Positions 10,851 to 62,026 of a stretch of 64,000 nt of DNA are shown in pieces. Numbering within the stretch: the stretch's first letter is position 1; the number at the start of each line of letters is the position of its first letter. This DNA comes from Macrostomum lignano (Eukaryota), in NCBI GenBank assembly GCA_002269645.1, contig NIVC01003811.1, forward strand, positions 1 to 64,000, written 5' to 3'. The notes under the pieces were generated by a model. It had not been told where the DNA came from. It made no database searches and saw nothing but the letters and a program-made list of their open reading frames with translations. A program made the position numbers and the translations under genes.

Positions 10851-10881
10851 CGGGAAAAAAGGAAAATGGCGCTCTCAAGCC

Positions 10882-13284: not shown

Positions 13285-13431
13285 CCAAATTATTTGATGC
13301 TATTGATTGATAAGTATAGATATATAAAATGTTGGTATGCAGGAATATTGGCAACAATTGGTTTAAAATTTCTTTCTAAATCCTTTGTAGAAATGCAAAT
13401 TTAACACAGCTAGTAGCCTTCAACCAGTGCA

Positions 13432-18030: not shown

Positions 18031-19988
18031 AGGGTTCCCCGACAGATATTTTCTCCTTCGAACGGATAATTCAAACAAAAAATGAATTTATGTTTCGGGA
18101 TGCATTACTTACCCTGACGCCGTATTCAGCTTTAAAATTTTGTAGACAAAAGTTTTGTCTTAAAGAAAAAAATATTGGTACGAATACAAAGTGTGTCAAA
18201 ACGAATTTTATCACACATTCCTTACAAAAAAATTCTCACGCCAAAGAACTTATGAAGTAACGGTAGCAATGAATTTTTTGTCAGTTTCTTGACGCATGCC
18301 TCAGCTTTGCAATGACACATGTCGGACTTTTGTATTTCCCGGGATATCTGCTTCCAAAGTGTGCTTTCCGTGAGTCATTCATCATCCGTACCAGGACCAA
18401 CCAAATCTTTGACTTATCGCTCCGTCTCTATGCTTCAATCATTTGCTCTGAAACTTCTATTACTTCTTGACTTCTTCTCAGCTTTGCAATGACACCTTAG
18501 AGTCGCCGGATTCTGGCTATTTCGATAGGAAGCTGTCGGACATTGAGAATGAGTGGCCATCGCAGGGCCCAGTAGGCGCCGTCATGTTCCAGTATATCAA
18601 GGTAAAGACTCCATCGACACTTATTTGAATAATTCAATTACTCGTAACATTCTCTTCATGAACCTAGCACTCTGTAGTAAGTTTTAAAAGATGTATTAGA
18701 TGTATTAAATAAATTTAATGATGTACTAAAAGATGTAACAGAAGCAAGACGAATTGGGTTGATAAAAACTAACATTGTGTGTAAAGTGTACGCTGCATTA
18801 CTTCCTACCTTTTCGTTATTTCAGAAAAAGGCGGCGGACACATTAAAGCAGAAAGCCACCCGATTTCGCCTTTCTGAAGCCGGCCTAAATTCTGCATGGC
18901 AACAACGCCAGGAACGACTCAATCGCGATTTGAAAGCGTTTCGTGTTCGTGAGCACCAGAGACTTGTCACAGACGCACTGTCAGAGTTTAAATCGCGTAT
19001 CAAATTAGAGTTTGCTGCTGACGAATCCGCACTTCACGGCTCTGGGGATTACAATTTGCAGCGAGGATGGACCTAACATCTTGTTGCTAACGAAGACTGA
19101 AATCAGCTCTCTGCTGACGAACAGAGTCTTCATCTAAAACATTTTTTGGCATCGCGAAGTAAGTTATAAGTAGTACACGAACGTGTTTAACTTCTGAAAA
19201 TATACTCTTTTCTTCTTTAATACGCCTGTTTCATTTGAATGGGCCCCATATTAGCAAAAGTAAAGATTGTATGTGGCCGGGCAAAACAGTCGATGGAATA
19301 ATCAAAGTCTTGTCAAGTCTATACCCTTAGCAGCTTTGGGCACAGATTCTATATTAATATAGGCGGATACAGATTCTATAGGCTTTGGGAGTTGTGTCAC
19401 CTTAATTATTATTCCTTTCAGTTTTGGGAACTAAGGACAACTTAAAATTTTTAAGCAATTAGCATTGGTTAAACTGGTTAAATGGGCAGTGTCCTGACAA
19501 TAAAAGAATATTTGCTCATGTCCGTAAAACTGTCGCGAAGTCTATTTAGGATATTTTTTCTTTTCATGCAGGTACGGCCACTCACATTGACCTTCGGCCA
19601 GGTGCCGGTGACACACGTGGAAACAAAAATCCTTCTCGTCTGCGCAGGCCGCCAAGGAAGGCTCCAATGGAAACGCCTTTTCCGTCAGAAATGGCAAATT
19701 CAGAAGAGTGTCGGCCTTGGGAAAATGATCATCCGCTTTTTGTAGCCTTCACATCGGCTGAATGCCAGGGGCAAGTGTGTCCCGGGTGCAGCTGCTCCAT
19801 TGTAACCAAGTCTGCCTTACTGCAGCATCGGTTTGTAGTGGGGCATATGGAACATCATATGACCCCCCAGAGTGCATCCACAGGAGTCGCAACTTCCTGG
19901 AAAGCAACCTCACAGCTGCGCAAAACTTTTTATCATCTGCGAGCGTACTGCCTAGAATCGCGATTCGGTCACGGTTTTTTCGTCTCTA

Positions 19989-22203
19989 TGATGTAACCAC
20001 GCTCTGGTCGCGGGATAGGGCATGGGAACTTTTTCGAAAGTGCCTCCTATCCCGTGCACCCTCTGCACAGAGCTGTCGGGACTCGGCCAGGTCTCCGACC
20101 GGGCCTGGAGACTCCCGCTCTGCTGCACCCCTCCTGCTGCCTTGGTCCCGTCTCTCCTGCCGCCACACCTGCCTTTCCGGAGCCCCTACCCCTTTCTGTA
20201 CCTCCCCCTCTACCCTATCTCTTCTGTTCCCGCCCTATTCTTCCTGTACTTTCTCTACCTCCTCCCTTTTTTTTTCTCCCTCTGCACTCTTTTCCTGCGC
20301 TGTCCCCTCTTTCCCTGTGTCTACTTACAGTACTTTGTGTGCTCACCGTCTCCCCATCCCCTCTCAAACTCCCAAACGGTGACGCAAGTCGTGTGACCCC
20401 TTCTCCCCTCGGTGACTCATCGATGACTCATCCCCCTCTCTTGCGCAACCTTTTCTCACGCTATTGTTCTCCTTCCCAAATTTCTCATGTGACACCCACC
20501 CCACCTCCGCTTCTATTGTTCTCGTTTTTGCTTCTTTTGTTCTCTCGACCCCCACCAATTATCACATTTTCTCCGATTTTCTCTTTCTTTTGTTCTCGTT
20601 TTCGCACCTAATTATCACCTTTTCTCCAATGTTTACTTTTCCATTGTTCTCAGTTTTCCCCAATTATCCCCGATTTCCAATTCCTTTGTTCTCGACCCCA
20701 GCCCTATTGTTCTCAATGTTTGCTTGCGCAACACTTTCGCGACCACCCGCTGCGCCAATTATCCCCCACCCCACCTCCGGATTGCGCAATTTCCCGATTT
20801 CTCATGTTGCTATGCCGGTCTCATGCTTCTCATCATGACTCATTCTGACGTCATTCTGCCGGCAGCCAATCAGAGAGAGGGAGCCATGGTAACGACCTTG
20901 AGGAGGCGGCTGTGAGGTCTATAAAAGGAAGCGATTTCGGCATGAGAATACTCAACTGAGTTTATCTCTGTTCCTCTCCTCGTCCTTCTTTGGACTTGCT
21001 GTCAGATTGAGTTCTGACCCATTCGTCTATAAGACGAATCCCTGCCGGCCCGCGGTCTGTTACCGCCAAGTTATCCTTAGCTCCCCAAGTGAGCTCGCCT
21101 ATCGGCCAGCGGTCTGATACCGCCCAGCATCATCAGCATCGCCTGATCTACATCAGCGCCTCGTCGCTCCAGCGCATCGCCGCTTCACCGTCTGCCTGAC
21201 TGCAGCCTACAGCCGCCCTCGGTCACTCCGCCTCTCTCTCTCTCTGTGCAGCTGCCGGTAAGTTCCTGCTACTAATTTGTGCTCTAATTGCCTTTGCTTA
21301 TCCGGGGTTTGCCTATTTTCCATTGTCTGATTAGAGAGCTGAGCCAATTGTGATACCGTATCTTTTGCTGTATTTTACTCAATAGTGAAGCCGCCTAATT
21401 GCCTGCTTATTTGCCTAAGGGCCTAATTATTAACTATTAACTAACTTCATCATTATTCAATCTTTCACCATCATTTCACTCATGGCTTGCTAAGCCTTTC
21501 TCCCGGGGTGGCAAAGCATAAGGAAGTTTGGGTAAGCTAATGGCCTCTCCCCGTGCAAAGCCCGCCTGTGAGTGCGTGCTGCGGGGCCGCGTGTGCGTGC
21601 AGTAGAGGGATTAGCGAGTCTTGGCACAGAATGGCAGTAGGAAGGTTGCAACCCCATGCTAACGCGTCCCTTCGCCCTGAGCAATCTAAACTGTAGACAG
21701 TACATGTTCGCCTCATACTACTCTTAGTAATCAAAGTCGCAAGTCAGCCTCGCTCACAGCCACAAAGGATCCCCTGCTGAGAAATCCTCCAGGATTGAGC
21801 CCAGAGTTCCCGATCATGCCCAAGCAGAGTCCCTGTACTCGGCTGCATGCGTCTCCCCTGTTAGCCTAAATCCCCTGGTAACCAATCCAGGCGGGGCTCT
21901 AGCCTCGAGAGGTCTGGTAGAAAGATCCAGGTGCGCCAGGTCACATAGAGTGGTGGCAGCCACTCGGTCATACCATGACCGAGTGACCAACTATTGCACC
22001 TTGGCTACAGGTGGGGTCCATGTGGGTCCTTGGCCCTCTGGTCACGAAGCGCTACCAAAGCTACTAATCATGTGGGCGGGACAGTCTGGTGCTGGAGGTC
22101 CGTCAGGTCATTGCCCGGTCATAGGCAGCCTACGGTCATTGCCCCCTCTAGCCATGCGTTCGTCTCTCTACGGAGCGGACAGGCGACAAGGGCGGTTACA
22201 TCA
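19989..22203 (+). repeat. 5' LTR of element 1 (2215 bp)
   Basis: Termini TGATGTAACC...GGTTACATCA (10-bp perfect inverted ends); near-identical to 30924-33138. Confidence 0.95.
20836..20926 (+). promoter_or_regulatory. LTR Pol II promoter: TGACTCA, TGACGTCA, CAGCCAATCAGAG (20863), TATAAAA (20920)
   Basis: Canonical AP-1, CRE, CCAAT and TATA motifs in conventional order. Confidence 0.65.
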
Positions 22204-22206
22204 AAA

Positions 22207-22224
22207 TGGTGGCAGCGGTGGGAT
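22207..22224 (+). other. Primer binding site, tRNA-Leu
   Basis: TGGTGGCAGCGGTGGGAT, 3 nt after the LTR, is complementary to the 3' 18 nt of eukaryotic tRNA-Leu (..AUCCCACCGCUGCCACCA). Confidence 0.9.
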
Positions 22225-24574
22225 CTGGTGCAAACAGCGCTGAGTTTCGGACTGGTGGTTTAGATGTGACAAGCGCACCTGTGGCATCCCTCAGAATGGT
22301 GGCCGAAGCGCAAAGAGTGCCATGTCTAAATCTACCAATCGTAAAAATCGCCAATCGTCATTCTCTTTCCCATGGCGTGAGGCAACAAAATCCAAAAATA
22401 TTAATGTAACTTTTCAAATTTTTCGGGCTGCGAATTCGTTCAATTCATTCGAAATTTCCAAATTCATTCATTCGCCAAAGCCCCTGATTCAATTTAAAAT
22501 TAATTTAGCCGATCAGTTTCAGCGCTAGAAAGTGTGAAGTGGTAGACGAGCGGATTTGATTACAATCAGAATAGCTACCTGGTAACGGAGTGTGTGAAGA
22601 ACTGCGAAAGTGAATTTTCCGGACTCACTTTCTATTTCATGGTAATATGCTTTATTTCCCCTCCCTTTCTTTCTCTCGCCTAGCCTACAGCAGAACTGTG
22701 TGAGTGTTGAGGTGGACAGCCAGCCAGGTACGGAAGCCTCATCACGCAAGCACAGGGAAGCTGGAAGCGAAGCATTTCTTTCCTTTGTCCTACCTCTTTC
22801 TTTTACTCGGGGGAGTGTAACAGTCGCTCTCCCTGATCGCTCAGTTAATCCTAGAAATGCGTAGAGACCGGAGCGTGTTTTGTTTGTCCATTAGAATGAA
22901 CAGCTATCAAGGGCTATGGGGAACTCGCTATATATGCATAGTAAGGGAAGCAGTAGTCATGGCCTTGGAAACATTGGGGGATACCAAAGTCTCGCAGGAA
23001 TGGGAATAGCGGTGTGATTGTATCTCTGTAGGGTATCAGTGTGACTCAAAAATCTCGGGCTAAAAAAAGTGTCACCTCCTATGGAATACCTGCGATCAGC
23101 CCGGACCTGAATTCTGCGGTAACCCCTGGTGCCTTCATGGCTGGGATTCGATCCCAACGTGTCTGCTGACTCTCCCCACTGTATTGCAGACCCGGTAGTA
23201 ACTGCTTTGGTTGCATTTGGGCTGGTGCAGTGGCTGGAAATAGTAGATCCCATAGTATCCTATTGATAGTGGAGTTCAGTGAGTATTGGAATGGTGTACT
23301 GGAAGTCTGGTGGCCCCCAGTGATCTCGTAATGTTTCCTGCTGCATTCTCCTCCTTTAGTAATTCCTCCCCCCTGCTGTCAGTCTGATAGGGGAGGTGGG
23401 TGTGCCAATCAGCCCGACCCGGTAGAACGGCGCTCCTGCCCGACTTGTCAGCCTGGCCCAGGAAGGCGCTATTGCGCAACTCTTTTCCCCTCTGGCCACT
23501 GCAGCCCACTAAGCGCTTAGACGCAGGGTTGCATGCAGTCCCCTAATGTAAAGCCCCGGTACATAGAGTGCCACCCCAGTGCCCCGCAAGGTCAATAAGA
23601 CGGGTTGACGTCTCTGGCAACTTGGAATAACCTAGATGGAGGTACCGCTGTCTCCTGGTAGAACCGGGCGTTCAAGTACAGTAAAGTGGAGAGGCTGACA
23701 ACTGTAGGACTTTCTCCGCCATCAGATAAAGGTCCCAAGTATGCTATTTCGAGCTGCAGCAAAGGTGGAGTATCGGAGGGGCAAGCATTTCAGGAAGATA
23801 CTCACTTAGGTCTGTTTATCCTAGGAAAGCGGGCGAGAGTTTCAGGCTTGTAATCCGCCTAACCTGAAAACTTCGGGGACAGTTTAGTCTGGACTCCCGC
23901 TGCGCGCCTTCGCTCTGAACAGAAGGGGGAGGTCTTGGTTTTTGTGGATTCTGCTAGACGTAGGGGAGCTGGATTCCCGCCTTTTGTGAAGCTGCGTGTA
24001 CAAGATTGGTAGTCCTGAGGTGGAAGCCCCACTGGACTCCGACGGTTTTCCGGCTGTGCAAGGGCAGTAAAGTGGGAGGACCTCCATGGGGATTGCTCCC
24101 GCCACTTGGGTTTTTGGGTCCAGGCGCCAACGCTTCTTCGTAGTAGCTTTCTTAAGGAAATGGGGCCCGGCGCGCAACCCTAGGGGAGAATTTGTACAGG
24201 TGCCGTAAGTCCGTTTACGGTCGGCATTTGGGTTCCCTAGCATGGCCGCAAAATGAAGGTCAAGTCTCTCTGAATAGCCAATTTTTCCCTGTCAGGATGT
24301 GCCATAGACAACTGGTAGTGGTAGCCGCAGTTTGAGTCAGTGTGCTTTGCCGAGTGAAGCCGTTAGGACTGCCTAAATGGAATTATGTGGAGCCACCCGT
24401 TTTTCAATTTGTTTTCTTCGACGCCGCAAGTATGTGGGTTTTGTCTGTGTTTGTGTGTGTGTGAGTGTGTTTGTGTGTTTCGGATCAACTTTTCGGTCTT
24501 TACCTGTAGTTGCCCCGGTTTTCTTTTCTTTTCCTTCCCGGTGGTGGGTACTCCCCCAGCTATCCGGCATTCAC

Positions 24575-26020
24575 ATGTCACGGGCGCGTGGAGATAGGGT
24601 CGTAGAAGCTGTGTGCGCAGACGCCCCTGGTCAACCACCCTCGGCCGCTGACACCCCAGCAGTTGCCGCCCCCGCAGCCGCAATGGCCGCAGCCGCTGGT
24701 AACCAGGTCCCTCAGCCTCCAGAAGCAGTAGTAGTTGAGGAACCAGATGAAGGAGTAGCAGCTCCCGCTCCCAATCAGGGTGGCGCAGCAGCCGCCGCTG
24801 CTCCCCCGGACGCAGCCCAGAATCCTCCTCAGGCAGTCCCGCAGCTAGGAGACTTAGTTGCCGCTATAGCCAATGCGTTTAACCAGCTAAACATGGGCCA
24901 AGACGCCCAGAGGCCGAAAATCTACGTAGAAAAGTTCTCTCCCGGCGAACACTGTTTTGTGCAATGGGTAGAGAGAATGATCTACAAGCTGGACGCGGAG
25001 AGAACTGTAGGAGATCAGGCTAGGAAGCAGGTGCTCATCTCGCACCTCCCAGGTGAATTTCAGAACTTAGCCTTAGGATTGGACGGGCAATTGCCCTTTG
25101 AGCAGTTCGTATCTAGATTAGGAGAGCAGTTGGGCGAGGCCAACACTGATCTGGCTAAGAGAAATAAGCTGAAGAATCTGAGCCAGAAACCCGGCCAATC
25201 ACATAGTGCTTTTGCTGCTATGATAAGATCTCAGATAACGGCCATGTTTCCTCAGATTCAGGGTGAGCAGAGAGAACAAGAAATCGTGTACACCTACTTG
25301 GAACACGCTAAGCTCCCCCGCCAGGTCAGACAAGATCTGTTGAGCCGTCGCTGGCAGACAATTGAGCAGGTGTTAGAACAGCAGCAAGCCCTGTTAGAAG
25401 CCGCAGACTTAGCCGGGAAATGGGACAGTAGTGGCCCGCCCAGGTCTGAGTCCCGCACCGAAGTCCGTCTGCAACCTCAGCAGCCACCCAGGCCCCCTCG
25501 CAAGTGGGTCAGGATGGTGAACCAGGAAGCTGACGAGACGGAGGAGGACGGTGACGGCCTATCAGAGATGCAAGAGAGGTTGGGCGCGCTAGAGCAAACG
25601 CAAAAGGATCTGCGCAACCAGCTGGTGCAGCTCAATGAAACTATGAAGGCGACAGCAGAGTCTGTTGCCCAGCTGCCCCAGCAGATGAGGCCCCCTCGCC
25701 CCGCCACTCCCAACAGGAACTGGAGGCAGGGGCAGGGCGGCTCTAATAGCAGTAGGAACTGGCGCCAACCCCAGCCCCCGCCGCTTGCAATTCAGGAGGC
25801 GCCCACGCCGCCGGCGCCGGGTGTGCAGCAGCAGCAATTGCAGCTTCGTGCGCCACCTGATCGCCATAGGCAAGATTTAGAGGAGTGGGGCAGAGATATG
25901 TTAGACGAGGCTACCAGGGAGAGGCAGGAGAGGCTCGCCCAGCTGCGCGCGCAAGCTCTGATGCCTCCTCCTTCCACGCCTGAAGAGCCCCCGGGTTCGG
26001 GAAACCCGTGGGAGGGCTGA
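24575..26020 (+). CDS. gag: Gag (capsid-like core, no CCHC knuckle) of element 1
   Basis: First ATG after a pyrimidine tract/CAG, in the frame of ORF 24377..26020; Ala/Pro-rich N-terminus; core EKFSPG..FVQWVERM..FEQFVSRL..LKNLSQKPGQSHSAFAAMI (MHR-like). Confidence 0.85.
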   Translation: MSRARGDRVVEAVCADAPGQPPSAADTPAVAAPAAAMAAAAGNQVPQPPEAVVVEEPDEGVAAPAPNQGGAAAAAAPPDAAQNPPQAVPQLGDLVAAIANAFNQLNMGQDAQRPKIYVEKFSPGEHCFVQWVERMIYKLDAERTVGDQARKQVLISHLPGEFQNLALGLDGQLPFEQFVSRLGEQLGEANTDLAKRNKLKNLSQKPGQSHSAFAAMIRSQITAMFPQIQGEQREQEIVYTYLEHAKLPRQVRQDLLSRRWQTIEQVLEQQQALLEAADLAGKWDSSGPPRSESRTEVRLQPQQPPRPPRKWVRMVNQEADETEEDGDGLSEMQERLGALEQTQKDLRNQLVQLNETMKATAESVAQLPQQMRPPRPATPNRNWRQGQGGSNSSRNWRQPQPPPLAIQEAPTPPAPGVQQQQLQLRAPPDRHRQDLEEWGRDMLDEATRERQERLAQLRAQALMPPPSTPEEPPGSGNPWEG

Positions 26021-26523
26021 ATGGCCCGGCCCGAACTCAGCCCCGTTCCCTCTCTAGGGCCCAGCTTAACCTGCCACGTCCGCCCAGCAAGAAGTTTAGA
26101 TTTGAGAAGGTACCCGATTTCTATCAGCCAAGACCAGCTGGAGGACAACGCGGGAGAGATATTGTTGTAGAGTTGCCAATTGAGAATGTTCCCACCCGCC
26201 TCCTGGTAGATGGGGGCAGTGCGCTGTCTTTGCTAACAGTCAAAGACTTTACTAAAATTACCGGACAGAGTGTGGAGGCCCTGGAGCCCCCATGTGTGAA
26301 GGCCGTGTCCTACACGGGCAATGAATTAGAGATGCTAGGCCAGGCCACCCTCACAGCAGTTATTGGGCTAGAAGAGGTGAGAATCCTCTTTCTGGTCGTT
26401 GGCAATTCAGCAGCAGTTTCCCTCCTGGGTAGTGCTTTTCTAGCCAGTACGCATGCTATCATAGACTATCGAACAGAAAAGGTTTACTTGCTAGGTGTGA
26501 GTCTCCCATTCGACCCCCGCTGA
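26008..26523 (+). CDS. Retropepsin-like aspartic protease, in the -1 frame relative to gag
   Basis: IENVPTRLLVDGGSALSLL, AVSYTGNELEMLG, FLVV..SLLGSAFL..HAIIDY: retroviral protease fold motifs; stop at 26521-26523. Confidence 0.85.
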   Translation: MGGLNGPARTQPRSLSRAQLNLPRPPSKKFRFEKVPDFYQPRPAGGQRGRDIVVELPIENVPTRLLVDGGSALSLLTVKDFTKITGQSVEALEPPCVKAVSYTGNELEMLGQATLTAVIGLEEVRILFLVVGNSAAVSLLGSAFLASTHAIIDYRTEKVYLLGVSLPFDPR

Positions 26524-27107
26524 GTAACAGATCGGTAGCTAGCCAGTGATTGCTTAATCCCCCCCCGATTCGCGTGTCGAAATTTTGCTCGTGTTGCCCC
26601 GTTGGAGACCGCTTTTCGCGTATTTACGTATGCCCTCTATTACTCGAATTTATGTTGTGACCTCGTGCTCGTTGGTGTTGTTTAAATATCTAAGATTTTA
26701 GCTCGAAAATTAGGCCCGTACAGTATGCGTTAATTCCCTATCAGTAAATATTAACTTGGAAACTAGTAAAATTTCTATGGGTCTGCTCCACAGGAGGTCC
26801 TGCCCCGCTGTTCAAGATTTTCTGGGAACAATGGAAGTCTGGGACCGTAGGAAATTAGCACCTTTAGGTCTGATTTCGTGTGTTTGTTCACACTTTGTGA
26901 AAGTCCGATTTTGGGAAACTTTTAATTGGTTTCGATGAGGCAATAGGGGGGGCATTCAATGTAATTAAGTTTATCAGGCAAATGGGGCAGCAATTAGTTT
27001 AGAGTAGGCCAGTGGTTTAGTCAATGTAAAGTCAGGTAAGTAATTAAAGTCAAGTTATGGGGACAGATAGTTCAGAATTAGTAAGTAAGCATTAAGAACC
27101 ACCAGCA

Positions 27108-27513
27108 TCAGCAGTTGGGAAGCCGCAGAAATAGCTCCAAGAGCAGTAGCCAGTGCATTGTGAGACCGGCTATTAGGGCCGTCGACAGCACGACCAAATG
27201 CCAGGAGCCGTCGGTCTCCACCACAGGGGTTGGCAAGGGCTGTGGAGCGGCAGCCACGGGCGTCACCGCGGCGACCGGCGGCGGAGCGTGCGCTCGGGCT
27301 GACAACGGCGGTGGTACCGGATGCCAACCGGCCCCGGACGCTGGTTCGCTGGCGGCCCGGCGGTCGCATGGCCCGGGAGCCGCGGCGCCTATGCACCAGA
27401 TGGCGCAGCCGGCCCAGAATCAGAGGGGGCGTCCGGCTCTGAATGGCTGTCTTCGGGCGCTTCGTAGTCGGACTCCTCTTCAAGGATGGGCTCGGCTACT
27501 AGCGGCCGGAATC
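27108..27513 (-). CDS. Candidate antisense terminal exon encoding a low-complexity protein with a C-terminal hydrophobic helix
   Basis: Strong acceptor TTTCATCCCTTAAATTCTCATTTTCAG| at 27514 on the minus strand; GC-rich island with open frames ending in hydrophobic stretches; true frame ambiguous. Confidence 0.4.
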
Positions 27514-27594
27514 CTGAAAATGAGAATTTAAGGGATGAAATAGAAGTAGGGAACTAGCCGGGTATTAGGATGTAGATAGATGGGGATTTTAACT

Positions 27595-27975
27595 TTATGG
27601 CGTGTGGTAGTGGCCTTCCTGGGGGTTTCTTCCTTTCTTCATTCCCTCTCCTCCCTTGAGCTCTAGGTGATCAAGTAGTGGTAGCCTTCTTCCCCGCCTT
27701 CTTTTAATGATACACCTCTAAGTGATGGCAGTTTTTCGTCTTCCTCTCCTCTGGTAGAAGGGCAAATAGTGGCAGTTTCCCCGGGCAATCCACTCTAATG
27801 GTGACGGGTTCCCTCTTTCTCTTCCCTGTTAATGTACAATTGGTGGCAGTTTTCCCTAGCAACCTCTCTCAAAATGGTGGCTGATCCTCCTTTTCTTTTC
27901 TTTGGTAATGCGCCAAGATGGTGGTAGGTTCCCCTTTCTCTTTTATAATAGTACATCAAACTGGTGGCAGTCAAA
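27595..27975 (+). repeat. Array of ~9 (T)GGTGGCAG-like motifs, each followed by a pyrimidine tract and a non-identical spacer
   Basis: e.g. AATTGGTGGCAGTTTT (27841), AACTGGTGGCAGTC (27962), AAATAGTGGCAGTTTCC, AGTGATGGCAGTTTTT, AAATGGTGGCTGATCC, AGATGGTGGTAGGTTCC. Confidence 0.7.
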
Positions 27976-28303
27976 TTAATGATTAATTCCTCTTTCGAAT
28001 TCTTTCGGCTGTTAAGTTTATGAGGGTCTCGGAGGCATGGATGAGAACTGCGTGCGCGTGGCGTTGAAGGAAGAAATCGAAGGGAGTTGGGCCGCATCAT
28101 CATTTATCCTCCGGAGTCTAATCTCCCAAATCCCTCTTCTATTCATATTAACCAAATTAATTTGTGTGCCTGATCTGAATGTGTGCATGTGAGGTGGGAG
28201 TGCGATCTCTGTCGGCTGGAGTACGGATCTGCCGCGGGCGCGACCGGAGGTGGTCTCGGGTCTGCCCCCTGCTCACAGGTGAGGAAACAGGAAGCGGCGG
28301 AAC

Positions 28304-28423
28304 CAGCCAATCAGAGCGCACGGAGACTAGAGCGAGCGGTCCCAAGCCAACGGCGACCCCGGCCGCAGCAGGTGTGCCTCCCAATGTGCTCAACCAATGG
28401 GAAGCCAGCCCCGGCACTATAAG
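28304..28423 (+). promoter_or_regulatory. Internal sense promoter of element 1
   Basis: CAGCCAATCAGAG (28304, identical to the LTR motif), CCAAT at 28381 and 28394, TATAAG at 28418, ~95 bp before ATG 28517. Confidence 0.6.
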
Positions 28424-28516
28424 AAGACCCACGCCTGCCAGAGCTGGAAATCATCAATCAGAGAAATCATTCTGTCCTTCAATCGCTGAAGCATTCTATG
28501 AACTATCCAGCTTGAC

Positions 28517-29086
28517 ATGGACACGAAGCCTACCATCAATCGAATTCAGCTATGCTCCAGCTTACCGTCTGAGCGTCCTGCCAGCCCAGTTAGCCGAAAG
28601 CGGCCCCGTGACGCCATCCAAGAGGCGGAGGACGGCCCCGAGCCGCCAGCGGCGGCCTCCGCCAGGGTCGAAGAAGGTGACGAGACAATCGACCCGGCCA
28701 ATGCTGGGGGCGACACCGCGGACATTTCGGACATGGCGGCCGAATTCGGCGAGGCGGCCCGCCGCCTGCGTGATGTTCTGCCCAACAGCCGCCGAAGTGT
28801 GGACATCGCCCTGCAAAGAGAAGAAGTCGATTGGGGTCAGGTGGCTGGCGAACCTTCGGCGACAGCTATGGATCTGGTGCACTGGGTCGGGCCTGAGTCC
28901 TATCATGGCCCACTCCAGGCCGAGGACAGGCATGCGACTCTAGAGCGCCAACTTCGCGACAACCTGGACCGGCCCTGTCTGCTCATCCTGTCAAAAGCGG
29001 CCCTGCTGGGATTGGTTGACAATACGCTGTTAATGTACATCGAGGCAGCGGCCCAGAGCGCCTACAAATACGCCCTCGCGACCTAG
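28517..29086 (+). CDS. Accessory ORF X part 1 (189 aa, unknown function, NLS-like RKRPR)
   Basis: ATG-initiated GC-rich non-repetitive ORF downstream of a TATA promoter. Confidence 0.65.
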   Translation: MDTKPTINRIQLCSSLPSERPASPVSRKRPRDAIQEAEDGPEPPAAASARVEEGDETIDPANAGGDTADISDMAAEFGEAARRLRDVLPNSRRSVDIALQREEVDWGQVAGEPSATAMDLVHWVGPESYHGPLQAEDRHATLERQLRDNLDRPCLLILSKAALLGLVDNTLLMYIEAAAQSAYKYALAT

Positions 29087-29865
29087 TCCGGCAGGCCGCC
29101 AAGTTCCTCCGCAAGGTTGTGGATGAGGAACCATCACACCTGACAGCCCGGCCGCCGTCCTGTGCCCCCATCACAGCAATCTTCAGCACCTGCGATCGGC
29201 CGGTCTACAAGAAGGTGATCATCAGCTGCGCAGCCTCCTCTCAGATGACTAGACAACTGACGCCAACCCAGAGAGCCCGGCTATTGATTGGCCTGGCCAG
29301 CTTGGCCAGCCGCTGGGGCATGCTTCCTGCGGACCTGCCAGGGCTGCTCTGGGGCTTCCTGAGCGAGGGCGCCGAATGGGAAGAGGCTCTCGTCATCCAC
29401 GACGGCATTCTTGCGGCCTCCGCGCCGGCCTCTGCGCCCCTCCTCTATGCGCCGTTTGCCACAGTGGCCTGGGCCGCCACTCTCTCGCAACGGTTCAATC
29501 GCCGCTGTGGGTGGGTGTTGGCGGCCCTGGGCGACGTTGAGCCCGGCTACGCGGGCCTGGCCGAGGTGCCCCGTGGCACTTTGCAGCATTTTGCAATCGC
29601 GCAGCCGCCCCTGTCTGCACCAACTCTGACACGGCTGCAACAAGTACGGAATGCGGCCTTCGTCGTCCAATGCCAAGCCCTGGGCATCCCGACTCTGCCG
29701 CAGTTGAGGGGCGTGCTGCGCAACGACATCTTGCCTAGCCGATGGCACCGAGTGGTGCTCACGGCCGCGGCAGCCCAACGTTATGTGGAAGCATGGGCAA
29801 GTGCCATGGCTCAGGTGGCGGCATATGGCCCGTACCAGCTAAATCAAGAGGCCCATTTCGAGTAA
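29020..29865 (+). CDS. Accessory ORF X part 2 (frame open for 281 codons from 29020; unknown function)
   Basis: Track ORF 29119..29865; the frame stays open upstream to TGA 29017-29019 and overlaps part 1 in the -1 frame. Confidence 0.65.
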   Translation, partial: QYAVNVHRGSGPERLQIRPRDLVRQAAKFLRKVVDEEPSHLTARPPSCAPITAIFSTCDRPVYKKVIISCAASSQMTRQLTPTQRARLLIGLASLASRWGMLPADLPGLLWGFLSEGAEWEEALVIHDGILAASAPASAPLLYAPFATVAWAATLSQRFNRRCGWVLAALGDVEPGYAGLAEVPRGTLQHFAIAQPPLSAPTLTRLQQVRNAAFVVQCQALGIPTLPQLRGVLRNDILPSRWHRVVLTAAAAQRYVEAWASAMAQVAAYGPYQLNQEAHFE

Positions 29866-30206
29866 GGATGCCGACTGCCTGCTGAGCGACGTCCGCCGGC
29901 CGGTCCGACCCGCCTTTCCGCCCCCTTGCGTTGTGTGTTTGTCGTGTGTGTGTGTGTGAAATTATCCTATTAATATTCGGTTCTTCCATAATATTCATTT
30001 TTAAACTTTAATAACCAATATACGAGTCATTGTTGTGTCATTATCTAAAAATTCCTAAAAATGGCTCTGTGTTGGCTGCTCACTACTTTTACCGTAAGAA
30101 AGGCCATATATTATTACTGCAATTGGCTCAGTTTAAAACGAAAGGCATGGCGAGTGGGTAGATTTCGTTTAACGTATAGGCGAAAGGAAATCAGGTTGGT
30201 GATGGG

Positions 30207-30388
30207 ACTTACCGAGTAGTTGTATAGTTTGGAAAATCGCGCTGAGTGCCTTGGTTGGAAACTGCGACTCCGTGTAGGTTGCAGGCAGCCGGCTCCCGTT
30301 ATCAGTGGCGCCTTTTATACAGTGGCCAGCGCACGGCGCGGCGCCTCCCAGCCTACAACCGATCGCCCCGAAGCCCTCTGACTGGCTG
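30207..30388 (-). promoter_or_regulatory. Internal antisense promoter, short first exon and splice donor
   Basis: On the minus strand: CAGCCAGTCAGAG (30388-30376), TATAAAAGG (30319-30311), then TCG|GTAAGT donor (30212-30207). Confidence 0.55.
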
Positions 30389-30906
30389 AAGCGGGGTCCG
30401 AGCCTTCAAGGACGCTAGGCCTCCGTGCGGTTGAACTCCCGGCGAAATTAGCTTATTAATTTACTGCGCTGCATTAGTATTTTTCCCCTGTGTAATCGTC
30501 ATTCTCCCCGAGGCTCTGCCCTTGGCTGTGTGCTAGCAACCCTTCCCCCCTTCTTTTTCCCCACTTCCCTCACCCTTCCCCGTTTCCTCTCTTTCCCAGC
30601 TGCGCTTCTATCCAATTATGATAATTTATTGTTGACAATTCGCTATTTTTCTCCCTACTATTGCGCTGTCTGTGTTTCCCCCCTCCCACTTTAGCCACAG
30701 CAACAGTTGAAATTTTTGAAATTCTGTATTGCACTCCAACCTATGTATCTCGTTTGTGAATTTATTGCTATCCCCTCTATTTTATCGCCTTTTTCCATTC
30801 CCGCTCGCGGTTTGTTAATTCTGTGATTTCACGTTCGGTTGAGGTCCCGCTCCCGTCTGTGTGGTTCCATGTTGGGCAGTGATGATGACGGAACCAGTTC
30901 CGTCAC

Positions 30907-30923
30907 AAAAGGCAGTGGGGGTG
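30907..30923 (+). other. Polypurine tract of element 1
   Basis: AAAAGGCAGTGGGGGTG abutting the 3' LTR. Confidence 0.75.
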
Positions 30924-33138
30924 TGATGTAACCACGCTCTGGTCGCGGGATAGGGCATGGGAACTTTTTCGAAAGTGCCTCCTATCCCGTGCACCCTCTG
31001 CACAGAGCTGTCGAGACTCGGCCAGGTCTCCGACCGGGCCTGGAGACTCCCGCTCTGCTGCACCCCTCCTGCTGCCTTGGTCCCGTCTCTCCTGCCGCCA
31101 CACCTGCCTTTCCGGAGCCCCTACCCCTTTCTGTACCTCCCCCTCTACCCTATCTCTTCTGTTCCCGCCCTATTCTTCCTGTACTTTCTCTACCTCCTCC
31201 CTTTTTTTTCTCCCTCTGCACTCTTTTCCTGCGCTGTCCCCTCTTTCCCTGTGTCTACTTACAGTACTTTGTGTGCTCACCGTCTCCCCATCCCCTCTCA
31301 AACTCCCAAACGGTGACGCAAGTCGTGTGACCCCTTCTCCCCTCGGTGACTCATCGATGACTCATCCCCCTCTCTTGCGCAACCTTTTCTCACGCTATTG
31401 TTCTCCTTCCCAAATTTCTCATGTGACACCCACCCCACCTCCGCTTCTATTGTTCTCGTTTTTGCTTCTTTTGTTCTCTCGACCCCCACCAATTATCACA
31501 TTTTCTCCGATTTTCTCTTTCTTTTGTTCTCGTTTTCGCACCTAATTATCACCTTTTCTCCAATGTTTACTTTTCCATTGTTCTCAGTTTTCCCCAATTA
31601 TCCCCGATTTCCAATTCCTTTGTTCTCGACCCCAGCCCTATTGTTCTCAATGTTTGCTTGCGCAACACTTTCGCGACCACCCGCTGCGCCAATTATCCCC
31701 CACCCCACCTCCGGATTGCGCAATTTCCCGATTTCTCATGTTGCTATGCCGGTCTCATGCTTCTCATCATGACTCATTCTGACGTCATTCTGCCGGCAGC
31801 CAATCAGAGAGAGGGAGCCATGGTAACGACCTTGAGGAGGCGGCTGTGAGGTCTATAAAAGGAAGCGATTTCGGCATGAGAATACTCAACTGAGTTTATC
31901 TCTGTTCCTCTCCTCGTCCTTCTTTGGACTTGCTGTCAGATTGAGTTCTGACCCATTCGTCTATAAGACGAATCCCTGCCGGCCCGCGGTCTGTTACCGC
32001 CAAGTTATCCTTAGCTCCCCAAGTGAGCTCGCCTATCGGCCAGCGGTCTGATACCGCCCAGCATCATCAGCATCGCCTGATCTACATCAGCGCCTCGTCG
32101 CTCCAGCGCATCGCCGCTTCACCGTCTGCCTGACTGCAGCCTACAGCCGCCCTCGGTCACTCCGCCTCTCTCTCTCTCTGTGCAGCTGCCGGTAAGTTCC
32201 TGCTACTAATTTGTGCTCTAATTGCCTTTGCTTATCCGGGGTTTGCCTATTTTCCATTGTCTGATTAGAGAGCTGAGCCAATTGTGATACCGTATCTTTT
32301 GCTGTATTTTACTCAATAGTGAAGCCGCCTAATTGCCTGCTTATTTGCCTAAGGGCCTAATTATTAACTATTAACTAACTTCATCATTATTCAATCTTTC
32401 ACCATCATTTCACTCATGGCTTGCTAAGCCTTTCTCCCGGGGTGGCAAAGCATAAGGAAGTTTGGGTAAGCTAATGGCCTCTCCCCGTGCAAAGCCCGCC
32501 TGTGAGTGCGTGCTGCGGGGCCGCGTGTGCGTGCAGTAGAGGGATTAGCGAGTCTTGGCACAGAATGGCAGTAGGAAGGTTGCAACCCCATGCTAACGCG
32601 TCCCTTCGCCCTGAGCAATCTAAACTGTAGACAGTACATGTTCGCCTCATACTACTCTTAGTAATCAAAGTCGCAAGTCAGCCTCGCTCACAGCCACAAA
32701 GGATCCCCTGCTGAGAAATCCTCCAGGATTGAGCCCAGAGTTCCCGATCATGCCCCAAGCAGAGTCCCTGTACTCGGCTGCATGCGTCTCCCCTGTTAGC
32801 CTAAATCCCCTGGTAACCAATCCAGGCGGGGCTCTAGCCTCGAGAGGTCTGGTAGAAAGATCCAGGTGCGCCAGGTCACATAGAGTGGTGGCAGCCACTC
32901 GGTCATACCATGACCGAGTGACCAACTATTGCACCTTGGCTACAGGTGGGGTCCATGTGGGTCCTTGGCCCTCTGGTCACGAAGCGCTACCAAAGCTACT
33001 AATCATGTGGGCGGGACAGTCTGGTGCTGGAGGTCCGTCAGGTCATCGCCCGGTCATAGGCAGCCTACGGTCATTGCCCCCTCTAGCCATGCGTTCGTCT
33101 CTCTACGGAGCGGACAGGCGACAAGGGCGGTTACATCA
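30924..33138 (+). repeat. 3' LTR of element 1 (2215 bp)
   Basis: Near-identical to the 5' LTR; I saw two substitutions and two 1-bp homopolymer indels. Confidence 0.95.
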
Positions 33139-35203
33139 TCTATGGAAATCCGCTTCCGTCCGGACGCTCTGCTAAGAAAATAACTGTTCGGATTTATAAC
33201 TGAAAGCGATAAAATATGTTCTGCCGTTAATCTGAAGATACCCGAAATTCTTGCGTTTATTAAATTTGTTCTCTTCCCCAAATTACCTCACATCGAAAGA
33301 GGCAGCTTGAGTAGAAAAAGAGCGACGGAAGGCGCTGGCGAAATAGAGCTGAGTACTGAGAGAAAAATTATGAGTAACACGAGGTTTGTGGGAAAGAACA
33401 AGGCAGATTAAGGCAAGGATTTGAGGAAGGGCGAGATGGAGGTAAGGGGAGCGATGGGCGACAGTGAGACAAATGTACCTACTTTTTGACATTTAAATAG
33501 CTTTCAGACGCAGTCTCTGTTTTGTCTGTTGTCTCTTCTTTAAAACTTCTTTTGCACAAGTCTCATTGTAATGTCTTGTGCATTTTGAAGTTTTTTTACT
33601 GTTTCTTGAACATTTACATGCGCATTTGACAACCGTGGCATTTTTTTAGCTTTTCAAAATAAAAAGCTTTTATGCAATAAAGTCTAATCGTTATTGGAAA
33701 GTTTTACAACGTAAAATTTGTTAATGGTACATTTGCTTCTAAAAATAAGAATATTTTGCCACGTTTTCGCTCATTTATCGCGTCGTTCTTTGATGCAAAT
33801 TCGTGTCCAGAACATATTCCGGTACTTCTTTTTTTAATCCAGCTAAGAGATCTAAAAGATCTATTTAAGAGGATTTTAGCCATTTTTAATGCCTCCCAGA
33901 GTATTTCCTATGTAGCTCCCCAATTTCGTCACGCCAGGAGCACCCGTGCATGGGTTGTTGCACTTCAGAGGAACTGGGCAGCTTCGCTTTTCATGAAAAG
34001 TGTCGCCGTATTCGCTGGCAGCTTGCAGACACTATGCGGCTATGCGGCTGATGTGCTATCCTAGCGGTCCGGCAGTCGGATATTGAGACTAAATGCTGAA
34101 TTCTGATAAAAAATCGATATAAGACCCAATAAATGTGCTATTTTAGCCCACTAGAAGCGCTTCTAATAGGTTCTGAGCGACCGCGTTGCCGTCTTTCGAA
34201 CGCATTTTGCATGCCCAATCAAAATTTAGCGTGGTCCGGATGGTGTCGGGCGGTTCTACGAGTATGTACTCGAGCTCGAATGGCTGGTATGTGCATGGAT
34301 TACTTTAGTAAGTTGACCTGAGATTTTGAAAAGTCGAAATTTTTTTCAAAATGATTGCCCAATTGCAAAATGACTCTTTCCCAATGATTTTGGCATGAGA
34401 AATCGAATGGCGAAACTCCGGAGACGCCAGGCAGTGAGGCAAAAAAGTTGGAGCTATTTTTAACTTTTTCTCGGCTTAGAGATTTGGAATCTCAAAGTCT
34501 GATATTCTAAAGTAGAAATCTCAAAGCATTGTATAGTGCATTTCTGTGCCTAAAAGTTCACTATCTACGTATTTGTGCACCATTTGCACAGCACCTAGCG
34601 ATATCACGGACCAGAACGGGGTGAATCCTGGGTGATTTAGTGAAAGTTGAGATGTTCCAAAAGTCAATTAAGATAAATGTCAATTACGAAATTTATTGTT
34701 GCTCTAAATCGACTAAATCGATAAGAATCAGATGGTTCTTATGGATATAAAGGAAACACGTAGGAGCTAAGACAATATATTTCAAGGAATGGAGAAATTA
34801 CAAAATTACAGACGCAAAATGGATTACCAAAAGTACGCTGATTATGTCCAGAAATTTTTTGTCGGGATGCGTGCAGAGCACCCCGAGAGAATTACACTTT
34901 AAAACTTACTCATGTGGCTAAGGTATACGTATTGACCTAACAAATGGATTGCTACTAACAGCTTGCTGGGTCTCGTTTCTATCAGAAAAACAAACAGAAG
35001 ACATGGATCACATATTGTATCCTAGTTTAGTGTCTTAGAAATAAGTTCCTTTCACTTATATTGATATTGCTTCCGTAAACCACTATTAAAAGTCTATGAG
35101 ATAACTGTTTCTTAAATATTTGTGTCCACAATGCATATTGTTTCTAGTACGGCTAGTGCGGGTTTCACAGATCAAGTGAATCCGTATGGAAATTTTAAAT
35201 AGA

Positions 35204-35878: not shown

Positions 35879-36134
35879 TTACAGAACCATCAGGACATGG
35901 CAGTGGCGGACCAGGCTGCGGTAAGTCCACAGTAGGTGTAGTCTGTAGGAGGTTCAGCTGCAATTTTTATGGGATTTTAGAAGTCTAACATTAGCATCTA
36001 AATTGACAGACACTCAGAAAGACTAGGATCAGAGACAATAGTACTACAGAGATACTATTTGTGCTTGTCCTATAGTTACTACACTTTACATTTTTGAACC
36101 AACTCAATGCAAACTGAAAAGTAGTGCATACCAT

Positions 36135-36900
36135 CTGATACCAAGTAATGCCAAATAAGTGTTAAGTAATGCCAAGTGTCTGCCAACTAATGCCAAGTAA
36201 GTGCCAAGTAATGCCAACTAATGCCAAGTGTCTGCCAAGTAATGCCAAGTGTCTGCCAAGTAATGCCAAGTAAATGCCAACTAATGCCAAGTAAGTGCTA
36301 ACTAATGCCAAGTGTCTGCCAAGAAATGCCAAGTAAATGCCAGGTGTCTGCCAAGTAAATGCCAAGTAAATGCCAAGTAAGTGCCAAGTAATGCCAAGTA
36401 AATGCCAAGTAAGTGCCAATTAATGCCAACTAATGCCAAGTGTCTGCCAAGTAATGCCAAGAAAATGCCAACTAATGCCAAGTAAGTGCCAAGTAACGCC
36501 ACGTAAGTGCCAAGTAAATGCCAAGTAAATGCCAAGTAAGTGCCAACTAATGCCAACTAATGCCAAGTGTCTGCCAAGTAATGCCAAGTAAATGCCAAGT
36601 AAATGCCAACTAATGCCAAGTAAGTGCCAAGTAATGCCACGTAAGTGCCAAGTAAATGCCAAGTAAATGCCAACTAATGCCAACTAATGCCAAGTGTCTA
36701 CCAAGTAATGCTAAGTAAATGCCAAGTAAATGCCAAGTAAATGCCAACTAATGCCAAGTAAATGCCAACTAATGCCAAGTGTCTGCCAAGTAAATGCCAA
36801 CTAATGCTAAGTAAATGCCAGGTAATGCCAAGTAATCAGTTACTTGGCCAGGCCTAGGCCTATGGCATTTGCCAAGTAAATGCCAAGTAATGCCAGGCCT
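36135..36900. repeat. Minisatellite, ~10-11 bp unit TGCCAAGTAA(A/G)
   Basis: Directly visible. Confidence 0.95.
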
Positions 36901-38510: not shown

Positions 38511-38658
38511 AATTTCGCACTGACCTAAGGGGTGCGAACAAACACGAGAAATTAAACTGAAATGTGCTAATTTTAACAGTCCAACTTTTATTGTTCCTAC
38601 AAAATTTTAAACAGCTGGGTAAGACCTCCTGCAGAGCAGACCGATAGATATTATTCTG

Positions 38659-38955
38659 GTTTCCAAGATAATATTGACTTACAGGGAATAAACATACCGT
38701 ACGGGCCTAATTTTTGAGCTATAAATGGAACATAATGGAAAGCGTACATAAATATGCGAAAGGCGGTATTTAACACGAGCAAACTTTCAATACGCTAATT
38801 GGGAGGGGATCAAGTAATCATGGGCTGACTACCATTCTGCCACTCAGCAGGGGTCGAACGGGAGACTAACTCCTAATAAATTAACTTTCTCAGTCCTATA
38901 ATCTATAATAGCATGAGTGCTAGCTAGAAAGGCGCTGCCCAGGAGCGACACTGCC
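38659..38955 (-). mobile_element. Diverged fragment of an element-1 relative (protease C-terminus and downstream non-coding segment)
   Basis: Encodes AVSLLGSAFLASTHAIIDYRTEKVNLLGVSLPFDPC* versus AVSLLGSAFLASTHAIIDYRTEKVYLLGVSLPFDPR* at 26410-26523; nucleotide similarity continues to match ~26765. Confidence 0.9.
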
Positions 38956-39298
38956 GTCAAATTGTTAACAATTTCTGTCTTGGGAGCTAAGGGTACAAGC
39001 CGGAACAAGAGGGCGGTACCGTTGCTATCCACACCCTAGAGATCAATGTAGATGTAAGAATAAAGAATTTACAGTAGGGGTTTGCAAATTGCTTGTGCTC
39101 CCTTCTTTAAGAGCCTTATTCCTTTCTTCTTTCTCTGTCCCCGTCACTGCTTGGTTGTTCTTTTTACCTTGATTGAGAACCCAACTCATGACTGGGTCTG
39201 CTTCGTTGGGCCCCTAAGTGAAGCGAGGAGTCCTGATGACAGCGGGCCAGAGGTGAGGAGCAGGGTTTTTTTGTGCGCAGAGTGTGCGTATGCACCCT

Positions 39299-40870: not shown

Positions 40871-42431
40871 ATATTTTCTTGATGTAAGTATTGTGGGTGT
40901 AAAAAAAGCAGAAAAGGCAGAAGACCAAAAATTAGCATTTAAGTGAACAACATTAAATTATGGTAAGGATTATTACTATTAAAATTAGAGGATTATTAAG
41001 TTTAAGCGATGAAAATACGCGGATTAGAAAAGTAGTATTGAAAGAGTAAAAAGTATTATTTATTCGAACATAAATAAAAACGGTGGAAATGATTTTTTAA
41101 AATTTAGTATTAGCATTCATACTTCGTCTGTAATCATAGTACTTTAAATCAGTAGCTCATTTTGGGTTTGTAGAATTTAAGTGATTAAGCTGGTGATAAT
41201 GCATTGGAGAGCCACTCATAAGCCAAATTGATTTATTATCGGGTTAGCCAATAGCCTTAATACTAAGATGCACAGCACAGGTAGGCTCCTTGCATGCACG
41301 CGCTCACAGCTCACACTGCTGCCAATATCAGCAGCAAGCTCAACCGCCTGCAAGTTAGCGATGTGGCAGTCCATTAATGTGGCAGTTGCAGGCCTAAATT
41401 GGTAACTCTCATGAAGTCATGCACTCATCACTCATGGTCTGTGTTTTTTTTGGTTTGTTTTTGTTTTGGCACGGTTTGAGTCTAGCAGTGCTAATATTGA
41501 ACACTTAGTAATCTTTTGTAACACTTCGGGTGAAGCACATTTAGTTCCTGTCATATTTATTGTCATTGAAGTCGAAGATCAATTATACCGGTACCGTTTC
41601 GACGTATCGTAATTATTAAAAAAGAATCTATATTTGAAAGTTTAACTGTTGTGCCACCTTAGATACATTTTTTCTGGTAAAAAAGTCTTAAATGTTTTAT
41701 GTATTGTAATAAAACTTAAAAACTCCCCTGCTTTTATCATGGACGAGTAAAAAAATCGAAAGGTAAGTTCAGTTTTGTTAGTGTTTTCCGTAGCTGTTGA
41801 CAACAAGAACTCAGTTACTTTTCATTTAATGTATCGTAAATTTATGATTTTTAAAGTTCATATGAGAATGCAGCCTAATTGTTTTTATGAATTGTCATGC
41901 ATTTAATACAGTTCTAGAGTAAAGTAAAATTATTCAGACACTTTCTCAAGACCTCAGGCAGTACATTCGCGGCATTCGCCGTGCAATTTTATAATTTTTG
42001 GAGGCTAATATCCATCAAAAATAACAGTGCGGATGCGGAGACAGGAAAAGCGTCATTTTTGCATCACAAGATCAAGCGATAGCATTTGATCTCGGTTAAT
42101 GAAGACTACCATTCTTTTAATTTAGGATGCAAAGCATGTCAGTCTGTTGTATTTTATACATGTATGTTGCCTGTTGCCTGTTAGGTTTAAAAAGTTTTTG
42201 TTTAATATAGATTATATTAATATTTAATCTGAATATAATTTAGATATAATTCTTTTTTAGATTTTTACAAGCCAAAGGTTATAAATACTCACTAGTGACA
42301 TTAGTATCAGTAGCCGAAATATTTTGTTTTGCTTGGTCTTGAAACAAGTATATATATAATGTAGCATATAAAGTGTGAAAAAGGGACACAACAGTAAAAA
42401 AATTCATAAGTGTATTAAAAATGAAAACTAG

Positions 42432-43257
42432 TGTGACGTTGTCAGTTTAAGGTGGTCCCGAAAAAGGCCGTTGGACTGCTGTTTCTCCATAGTTTCAACC
42501 CTTCAGTTCACCGTTTCAACTAAACTTTTCCATTTGTTTATTGCGACGTTTACTTGTAGTAGTGCCCAACGATTTTGTGTCAATTTCTAATTCACTGTAT
42601 ATTTTGCTATCCTCTCTCGCGACCGTATAAAATTGGCACGATCGATAATTTTAAGTTCTCTCGCCAGCCGATGAAAATCACTCGTGCTTACGCTACCCCC
42701 CCCCTTTTGCGCTTCTTTATTAACCCTCGCCTGGCGGGCTGGGGGTTTCACTCGTCCCTGTTCTTGTGTTCTGTGTTCTCTCCTTAGGCTTGTCCTCCGT
42801 CCCGTCTGGCTTGCCTAGCCTTGTCTAGCCTTGTTTTCCTTCTCTCTGTCTGGCTGCCTCGAGCCTCCTTACCTCACGCCACGGTTGACGCCAACCTCGC
42901 CACTGCTCATCTGCCTGCCTACTGCGTCTCACTGCCTTCACTGTGCTCATTGCCATTGCTCATCACGTTACATCGCCATTGCACCGTCGTCTGTCACCTG
43001 ACTATCCAATTTATCTTCAAAGAAACCATTGTTGCAGCCGCCAGTGCCCAGAAAGCTATAGTTTGTTTATTGACATAAATTCTAACCAAGCCTAATATTG
43101 ATACTACCAATAAAACCAACTACGGCAGTCCCTGCCTTTATCGCCAAGTGCTCCGCTACAAATCCGCTTTACAAGAATTGACTTCAACTTATTTTGGGAC
43201 TAAAACGGCCCTTTTAAGGGTCATCGCATAGCTAGCCGCTACGTCAATAACGTGACA
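42432..43257 (+). repeat. 5' LTR of Gypsy element (826 bp)
   Basis: TGTGACG...CGTGACA. Confidence 0.95.
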
Positions 43258-43263
43258 TAATTT

Positions 43264-43280
43264 TGGAGGTCCCACCGAGA
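43264..43280 (+). other. Primer binding site, tRNA-Gln
   Basis: TGGAGGTCCCACCGAGA is complementary to the 3' end of tRNA-Gln (..UCUCGGUGGGACCUCCA). Confidence 0.9.
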
Positions 43281-62013: not shown

Positions 62014-62026
62014 TTAGAATAGCAAG

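Follow-up and report, generated by a model that had tools for sequence, protein, structure and literature searches.

In wheat, long-lived elements encoding Gag or Gag-protease have been described together with partner elements, namely RLG_Sabrina_SA (GAG-Pro) with RLG_Wilma and RLG_Quinta with RLG_Cereba (PMC9744471, PMC11302176). Also, the Gypsy-type element Cer1 of C. elegans encodes CERV, an accessory protein of 517 aa (PMC10309623), and LTR retrotransposons of bdelloid rotifers carry non-env ORF3 genes in the env slot, which are family-specific and modular (PMC5408684). Further, a conserved antisense gene with a promoter near the 3' end has been reported for the antisense ORFs of the plant elements Grande, RIRE2 and Retand and for the antisense promoter of HTLV (PMC7264820). 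An LTR family is usually interpreted as a single autonomous element accompanied by parasites, and a published annotation pipeline starts from the RT (PMC12801592); the main text of that paper has no mention of protease, non-autonomous, bipartite, extra ORF, accessory or antisense, and its supplements 2–5 may list such families. The use of 'bipartite' for SINEs (PMC7245038) is unrelated to split elements.

The window, i.e. the whole stretch of 64,000 nucleotides analysed here (Macrostomum lignano, contig NIVC01003811.1, positions 1 to 64,000), contains an LTR element that spans 19989–33138 (Table 1). We slightly favour the reading that this is one part of an obligately segmented LTR retrotransposon, made of a Gag-protease and a capsid-Pol segment, in which an accessory protein family and an antisense gene would regulate a two-RNA cycle. 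The element shows the Ty3/Gypsy hallmarks, that is, TG..CA LTRs, a 4-bp target-site duplication (19985–19988 / 33139–33142), a primer-binding site, presumably of the tRNA-Leu type, and a polypurine tract. The 5' LTR also holds a splice-donor-like site at about 21256. The protease of the window scores below the cut-off against PF13975 (E 0.021), while its family-2 orthologue, introduced below, reaches E 6e-4; the protease frame terminates at a stop, with neither RT nor integrase downstream of it. By its coding content the carrier is a Gypsy element that encodes Gag and protease only, and its intact Gag-protease together with the lack of RT and integrase is the combination expected of a semi-autonomous element of the Sabrina/Quinta type.

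Table 1. Features of the carrier element and its accessory genes, in window coordinates
Feature	Position	Strand	Description
5' LTR	19989..22203	+	2.2 kb, inverted 10-nt termini; CCAAT 20863, TATA 20920
Primer-binding site	22207..22224	+	first 18 nt identical in family 2
Long leader	22225..24574	+	98% in common with Pol-type partners
gag	24575..26020	+	capsid-like domain, no CCHC knuckle; dN/dS 0.10 against the C100 copy
Aspartic protease	25984..26523	+	-1 frame; slippery heptamer 25999-26005; DGG motif
Antisense last coding exon	27108..27513	-	acidic, Pro/Ala-rich, hydrophobic C-terminal segment; no start codon near 5' end
Internal promoter of ORF449	28304..28424	+	CCAAT 28304-28316 and 28394-28398, TATA 28418-28424; predicted from motifs
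Accessory ORF449	28517..29865	+	about 95 low-complexity N-terminal residues, then mostly helical core; frameshifted here
Antisense middle exon	28566..28810	-	inside first 100 ORF449 codons; ATG 28806-28804; phase 1 with last exon
Candidate antisense promoter and short first exon	30213..30388	-	CCAAT-like 13-mer 30388-30376, TATA 30319-30313; GTAAGT donor ends exon
Polypurine tract	30907..30923	+	assigned by sequence
3' LTR	30924..33138	+	99.8% identical to 5' LTR

Window-type protease occurs at about 55 genome loci. Gag and LTR matches lacking ORF449 identified 18 Gag-protease copies without the accessory cassette, with at least 4 different junctions; because these copies have multiplied, ORF449 is not needed in cis. 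Two of the cassette-less family-1 copies (L081, L089) retain the last ORF449 codons, a trace of recombination between types. Several other observations concern the surroundings. Fragments of the protease end with the DNA that follows form a dispersed repeat at 70–86% identity (e.g. 38532–38975, minus strand; 1059 first-look candidates), perhaps a further non-autonomous derivative. The LTR part 21500–22260 gave 736 genome candidates, far above the internal regions, which may represent solo LTRs or more internal types. A second young Gypsy element lies at 42431–52336 (830-bp LTRs, 99.6% identical), and in its Gag a CCHC knuckle precedes a cold-shock domain (PF00313, E 7e-7, above cut-off), a pairing that resembles Lin28-type RNA binders. 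Many minisatellite arrays with periods of 10–32 nt (1–14000, 36100–36850, 56660–62030) create spurious long ORFs.

The accessory gene had been read from the sequence alone as a single protein of about 449 aa broken by a missing base, and this was borne out. A genome DNA search with the region gave 41 matches, the best 30 of which were treated as loci, and 15 of these 30 have one open 449-codon frame; the other five reading frames contain stops. In the window copy, a one-base frameshift lies at 29077–29079, the upstream frame tracking the intact copies to 29077 and the downstream frame from 29080. At the break site, 26 of the 29 other loci are one base off from the window, one is window-like and two are a base short in a different way nearby, and all eight public sequencing runs compared with the window carry the open form. 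The same reading had placed the join at 29020, which was wrong, and the 20 residues of its joined sequence from there are absent from the natural protein. Of 71 one-base deletions among the copies, 60 lie within base runs, which hold 46% of the bases, so the break in the window is either assembly noise or a private mutation. All protein analyses are based on a natural intact ORF449 copy and not on that of the window.

The internal promoter had been thought to repeat a 13-nt CCAAT motif of the LTR, and CAGCCAATCAGAG is indeed found exactly at 28304–28316 and in both LTRs; at up to one mismatch there are 5 matches against 0.12 expected. The likeness between promoter and LTR is exactly 13 nt with none in the flanks, and diverged alleles keep only the CCAAT consensus, which points to a shared factor-binding motif and not to a copied piece of the LTR. 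The arrangement of CCAAT at about −214 and −127 and TATA at about −99 from the ATG is kept in three diverged alleles, including C100 and C201. The idea of a single orphan accessory gene that has a promoter of its own is supported. In three copies (C616, C3989, C3922), a 2.1-kb DNA transposon, which we take to be Ginger-like, sits between the second CCAAT and the TATA; it encodes a stand-alone integrase-type transposase, is flanked by a CCGG duplication and was copied along with the element (positions 1–2078 of locus L036 in the C616 case). The integrase upstream of ORF449 in these copies was considered as cargo of the element and rejected, as it belongs to the nested transposon. Another ORF449 copy (C1570) has a 6.2-kb insertion near window position 26750.

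Two old family-1 alleles, one intact in a complete element on contig C100 and one a broken relic on C201, allow selection to be measured. The C100 allele has 77% protein identity. Over the core (residues 101–449), dN/dS is 0.063 against C100 (bootstrap 0.03–0.09; dS 1.7) and 0.076 against C201, and the changes by codon position are 56/22/182 in the pairwise allele test; over the N-terminal 100 codons, dN/dS against C100 is 0.32. Pairwise tests show purifying selection on the core and nothing that would indicate positive selection. ORF449 is a real gene whose core is under strong purifying selection. The gag genes of the window and C100 elements differ by a dS of 0.165, against 1.4–1.7 for ORF449, and identity along the family-1 element is 94–99% in LTR, leader and gag and 69–76% over the cassette. 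By this gap in identity and dS, the cassette far predates the backbone on which it sits and has been swapped from one backbone to another. On C100, a family-2-like allele lies beside a canonical Gypsy, an arrangement that might represent an unsplit ancestor, though the intervening DNA is pieced together from other repeats.

The enzymes lacking in the carrier occur in related elements. Ten other loci have family-1 LTRs, primer site, leader and first gag codons in common with the window type (98%), the sharing continuing to about 24784; they then switch to a different capsid-like domain fused to RT-RNaseH-integrase and rejoin the window type near 30090. Nine of the ten are complete enough to judge, two of them with a single open frame of 1543 residues. 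Pfam confirmed the order RT-RNaseH-integrase in the partners, the window element being without pol, and Pfam and motif searches found no protease in the two open polyproteins. Target-site duplications flank three of the four family-1 Pol copies with both ends seen and one family-2 Pol copy; flanks are mismatched in one Pol copy and one ORF449 copy, and one family-1 Pol copy ends at a contig edge. One Pol copy (C4365) is without leader bases 22224–23008 yet has a target-site duplication, which narrows the leader part needed in cis.

A second family repeats this layout. A protease search found 14 more loci at about 40% identity, which are Gag-protease elements of family 2, and their LTR and leader are 97% identical to those of two Pol elements with a capsid-like domain and RT-RNaseH-integrase and without protease. 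In the slot of ORF449, family 2 has an ORF of 388–391 aa that is 21–24% identical to family 1 and matches the family-1 profile (HMM E 5e-12); with the reciprocal profile, all four true relatives rank above 402 shuffled or reversed decoys. HxTL, HDG, YAP-W and HR motifs are common to the accessory proteins of both families, and the family-2 ORF has a dN/dS of 0.10–0.18. Between the families, identity is 24% in the accessory core, 45% in the Gag capsid, about 40% in the protease and 72% in RT and integrase, the RTs taken alone being 72% identical. Since family 2 repeats both the split and the ORF449 homologue, the two features predate the divergence of the families. The family-2 Pol elements (C3095, C1757) retain the last 40 codons of the accessory ORF, a trace of recombination between types.

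Is the split obligate, i.e. does neither half replicate alone? We consider this probable. In an RT search of the genome, only 10+2 RTs reached at least 73% identity and no other exceeded 50%, and the two protease-less Pol types form a clade with 100/99 support. A protease motif lies upstream of the RT in all five canonical neighbours and in none of the three Pol-type loci tested, and no copy of the clade joins protease and RT among the 12 RT loci (Pfam on two polyproteins, motif search on three loci). No fully autonomous partner was found, the Pol partner being without protease in both families; the genome searches score the best candidates only, and the assembly could lack an autonomous copy. 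Each Pol type has its LTR and leader (97–98%) in common only with its own Gag-protease type, and the two capsid-like domains within one family are only 27% identical, so the split is old. The nearest canonical Gypsy neighbour (locus L149 on C3853) has a J-domain-like ORF after pol, at positions 8724–9599 of that locus.

The opposite reading holds that the split is not obligate, the carrier being a Sabrina-like passenger, Pol borrowing the protease of unrelated Gypsy families or of an unassembled autonomous copy, and ORF449 being family cargo of unrelated function. Many canonical Gypsy families with their own proteases reside in the genome, and searches scored in part (40 of 736 candidates in the LTR search) leave room for such a copy. 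Against it stand the same reciprocal split in two families whose RTs differ by 28%, as well as the exclusive pairing of LTRs and the distance between the capsid-like domains described above. We regard this reading as a minority prospect, with a probability of roughly a quarter.

ORF449 is interlocked with a gene on the opposite strand. A skip of 27514–28565 with minus-strand GT..AG ends is present in contigs of four of eight runs from three studies, and a skip of 28811–30212 (joint 28809–30212) in one of eight; these contigs are unstranded, the run type was guessed, none of the runs being recorded as RNA, the shorter side measures 28 letters and a joined form present as DNA would also explain them. 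Acceptor, ATG, open frame, phase and donor of the antisense exon are kept in three family-1 alleles, and sense residues at the donor change between alleles although the donor itself is kept. The antisense last exon is open from its acceptor in most copies and frameshifted near 27393 in that of the window; its dN/dS is 0.20–0.31 against the two diverged alleles and 0.52 against a close one, and the hydropathy of its C-terminal segment is 2.02. In family 2, the same arrangement is found in the sequence of three alleles, with a last-exon dN/dS of 0.18 and the codons upstream unconstrained. It appears that in both families a nested antisense gene begins inside the N-terminus of ORF449. The antisense last exons of the two families have no evident similarity, and synonymous change is not reduced in the sense/antisense overlap (p 0.45, 0.18), a comparison of low power as the third positions coincide. 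In cassette-less copies, the start codon of the antisense gene is lost along with ORF449.

Searches with ORF449 revealed few relatives. Outside the genome only unnamed proteins on short contigs match, one full-length (33% over 341 residues, pairwise E 8e-42) and two as fragments, and these cluster with family 1 in a long-branched tree. A word-index protein search returned nothing for three queries; a HMMER scan of representatives gave three matches, among them a bacterial TPR protein that is spurious and matched on repeats. No relatives were found in the viral or metagenome contigs searched, and sequence searches of Pfam, PHROGs, NCBIfam and PDB gave no match, in agreement with the earlier impression that the protein has no recognised domain. 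A single-sequence model reached pLDDT 37 and a 9-row alignment model, family 2 not included, pLDDT 54 and pTM 0.53, with a confident part at about residues 150–285 (pLDDT 70–85) that forms a helical bundle; Foldseek gave nothing at E <=0.001, and the best VIA Z of 6.3, on helical bundles, is within background. An echo of NusB (profile E 0.8; Foldseek E about 1; Z 3.4) does not rise above noise and, like that of the tyrosine-recombinase core-binding domain (Z 4–5), was rejected as a common helical arrangement. A polymerase-like reading of HDG was dropped, as neither H nor D is invariant, each giving way to another residue in one relative. ORF449 represents a new protein family that is under selection and has no fold match.

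The anatomy of the gene says that its product would be soluble, dispensable in cis and made from its own promoter. As noticed earlier, the ORF at 28517 has an RKRPR cluster and an acidic stretch and shows no env-like pattern: hydropathy reveals neither a hydrophobic N-terminus nor a membrane segment (maximum over 19 residues 1.71), and the features of an env-type ORF3 are absent, including any Pfam match. The suggestion of a nuclear protein draws on RKRP, a candidate nuclear localisation signal that is kept in three family-1 alleles and missing from the family-2 homologue, which has no basic cluster; it is therefore not a family-wide feature. The acidic and basic stretches of family 1 sit in the part that also codes for the antisense exon and are not common to family 2. 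The core itself, with 30 K/R against 32 D/E, is not basic.

We tentatively propose, with somewhat less than even confidence, that ORF449 is a trans-acting, Rev/CERV-like RNA-licensing factor that serves both halves. Its core diverges faster than Gag and protease, it has its own promoter and it is dispensable in cis, which points to a host-facing factor acting in trans. The Rev/CERV-like role is suggested by the 3.6-kb leader common to both halves, whose RNAs would have to arrive in the cytoplasm unspliced, and which holds 41 upstream ATGs and splice signals (a donor-like site in the LTR and acceptor-like sites before gag in both halves), and by the precedent of CERV, as described for Cer1 (PMC10309623). 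ORF449 would keep the unspliced genomic RNAs of the two halves from being held back in the nucleus or degraded, presumably by recognising something in the shared LTR or leader RNA. The RNAs of both elements might then be packaged in shared particles, which the Pol polyprotein would enter via its own capsid-like domain and in which the protease of the partner would process it. The nested antisense gene and convergent transcription may tune the level of ORF449. No spliced sense RNA from the LTR was found in the four runs covering the LTR, so that a need for export is presumed; the only joints in contigs over ORF449, which are unstranded, are antisense. Searches gave no sequence or fold link from ORF449 to Rev, CERV or an RNA-binding domain.

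The fast divergence of ORF449 fits counter-silencing equally well. In line with the sequence-only reading, ORF449 may be a transactivator or a suppressor of silencing, bound to chromatin or small-RNA proteins of the host and serving to maintain activity of the shared LTR. Such a factor would likewise act in trans from its own promoter, and the deep alleles on near-identical family-1 backbones are what a conflict gene swapped by template switching would leave. The acidic stretch and RKRP of family 1 suit such a role; their overlap with the antisense exon and their absence from family 2 weaken the argument, as do the lack of a detected DNA-binding or chromatin domain and the purifying selection on the core. 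We hold this explanation to be unlikely, on a level with the non-obligate split and clearly behind the licensing factor.

More doubtful is the idea that ORF449 is an RNA-packaging protein that replaces the nucleocapsid knuckle, possibly a captured RNA-virus nucleoprotein. Neither family's Gag has a CCHC knuckle, a split genome needs co-packaging of two RNAs and the YAP motif is invariant; the size of ORF449 (390–450 aa) and its helical core also resemble, to our mind, negative-strand virus nucleoproteins. However, the confident part of the pTM 0.53 model matched no nucleoprotein in PDB or BFVD, the viral contigs searched gave no relatives, and a separate promoter uncouples the amount of ORF449 from that of Gag, with a core that lacks basic character. 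Slightly less probable again is a toxin-antidote or exclusion pair, formed by the sense ORF and the nested antisense gene, that retains the Gag-protease half in the population. The genes are interlocked and under selection in both families, the family-1 antisense product has a hydrophobic tail and cassette-less copies lose both together, but these copies are common, the antisense last exons are not evidently similar between families, no toxin-like match was found and the overlap shows no reduction in synonymous change. A transduced host gene fragment or neutral open frame, either of which would have refuted the sequence-only reading, has outside relatives that are only unnamed proteins on short contigs in its favour and is next to negligible, given a dN/dS of 0.06–0.18 over both families and not near 1, strong selection inside elements of two families, no named homologue or host-gene match, and no copy with introns or outside element-derived DNA (three queries, best candidates scored).

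If the segmented reading is true, this would be natural genome segmentation in a retroelement, a counterpart of multipartite viruses that has been stable through an RT divergence of 28%, and the Gag-to-Pol ratio would be set by the copy number of two loci and not by a frameshift. Pipelines anchored on the RT would pick up the Pol half alone and overlook the accessory gene. The host should be amenable to knockdown and tagging, so the two-RNA co-ordination of a split retroelement becomes testable. Searches of openly available full-text papers turned up the wheat pairs and the unrelated SINE usage, but no account of two reciprocal halves in which the Pol partner is without protease. Gag-protease-only elements, non-env third ORFs and antisense ORFs are already known; what looks new is an accessory family on an apparently segmented Gypsy element.

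As in the described wheat pairs, primer site and LTR features are common to the partners and cassettes are swapped between near-identical backbones, and RLG_Quinta also has an extra domain of unknown function (PMC9744471, PMC11302176). In contrast, the wheat partner is described as fully autonomous (Cereba with GAG, PRO, RT, RH and INT), whereas the partner here is without protease and has no more than a capsid-like domain, so the dependence looks mutual; the host here is an animal, and the halves are 97–98% identical in LTRs and leader. CERV and ORF449 are similar in size, lineage-restricted and fast-diverging, CERV being described as without homologues outside its host group; CERV is made from a spliced mRNA sharing gag exons and has a G-protein-like domain, while ORF449 has its own promoter and no detected similarity to CERV (PMC10309623). 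The bdelloid ORF3s described can be assigned to known types (GDSL esterase, DEDDy exonuclease, fusogen) and come after a complete gag-pol, whereas ORF449 is unrecognised and lies on the half that is Pol-less (PMC5408684). Unlike the plant and HTLV antisense genes as reported (PMC7264820), the antisense gene here appears to be spliced and to take its start codon from an exon nested in the sense accessory gene, in two families.
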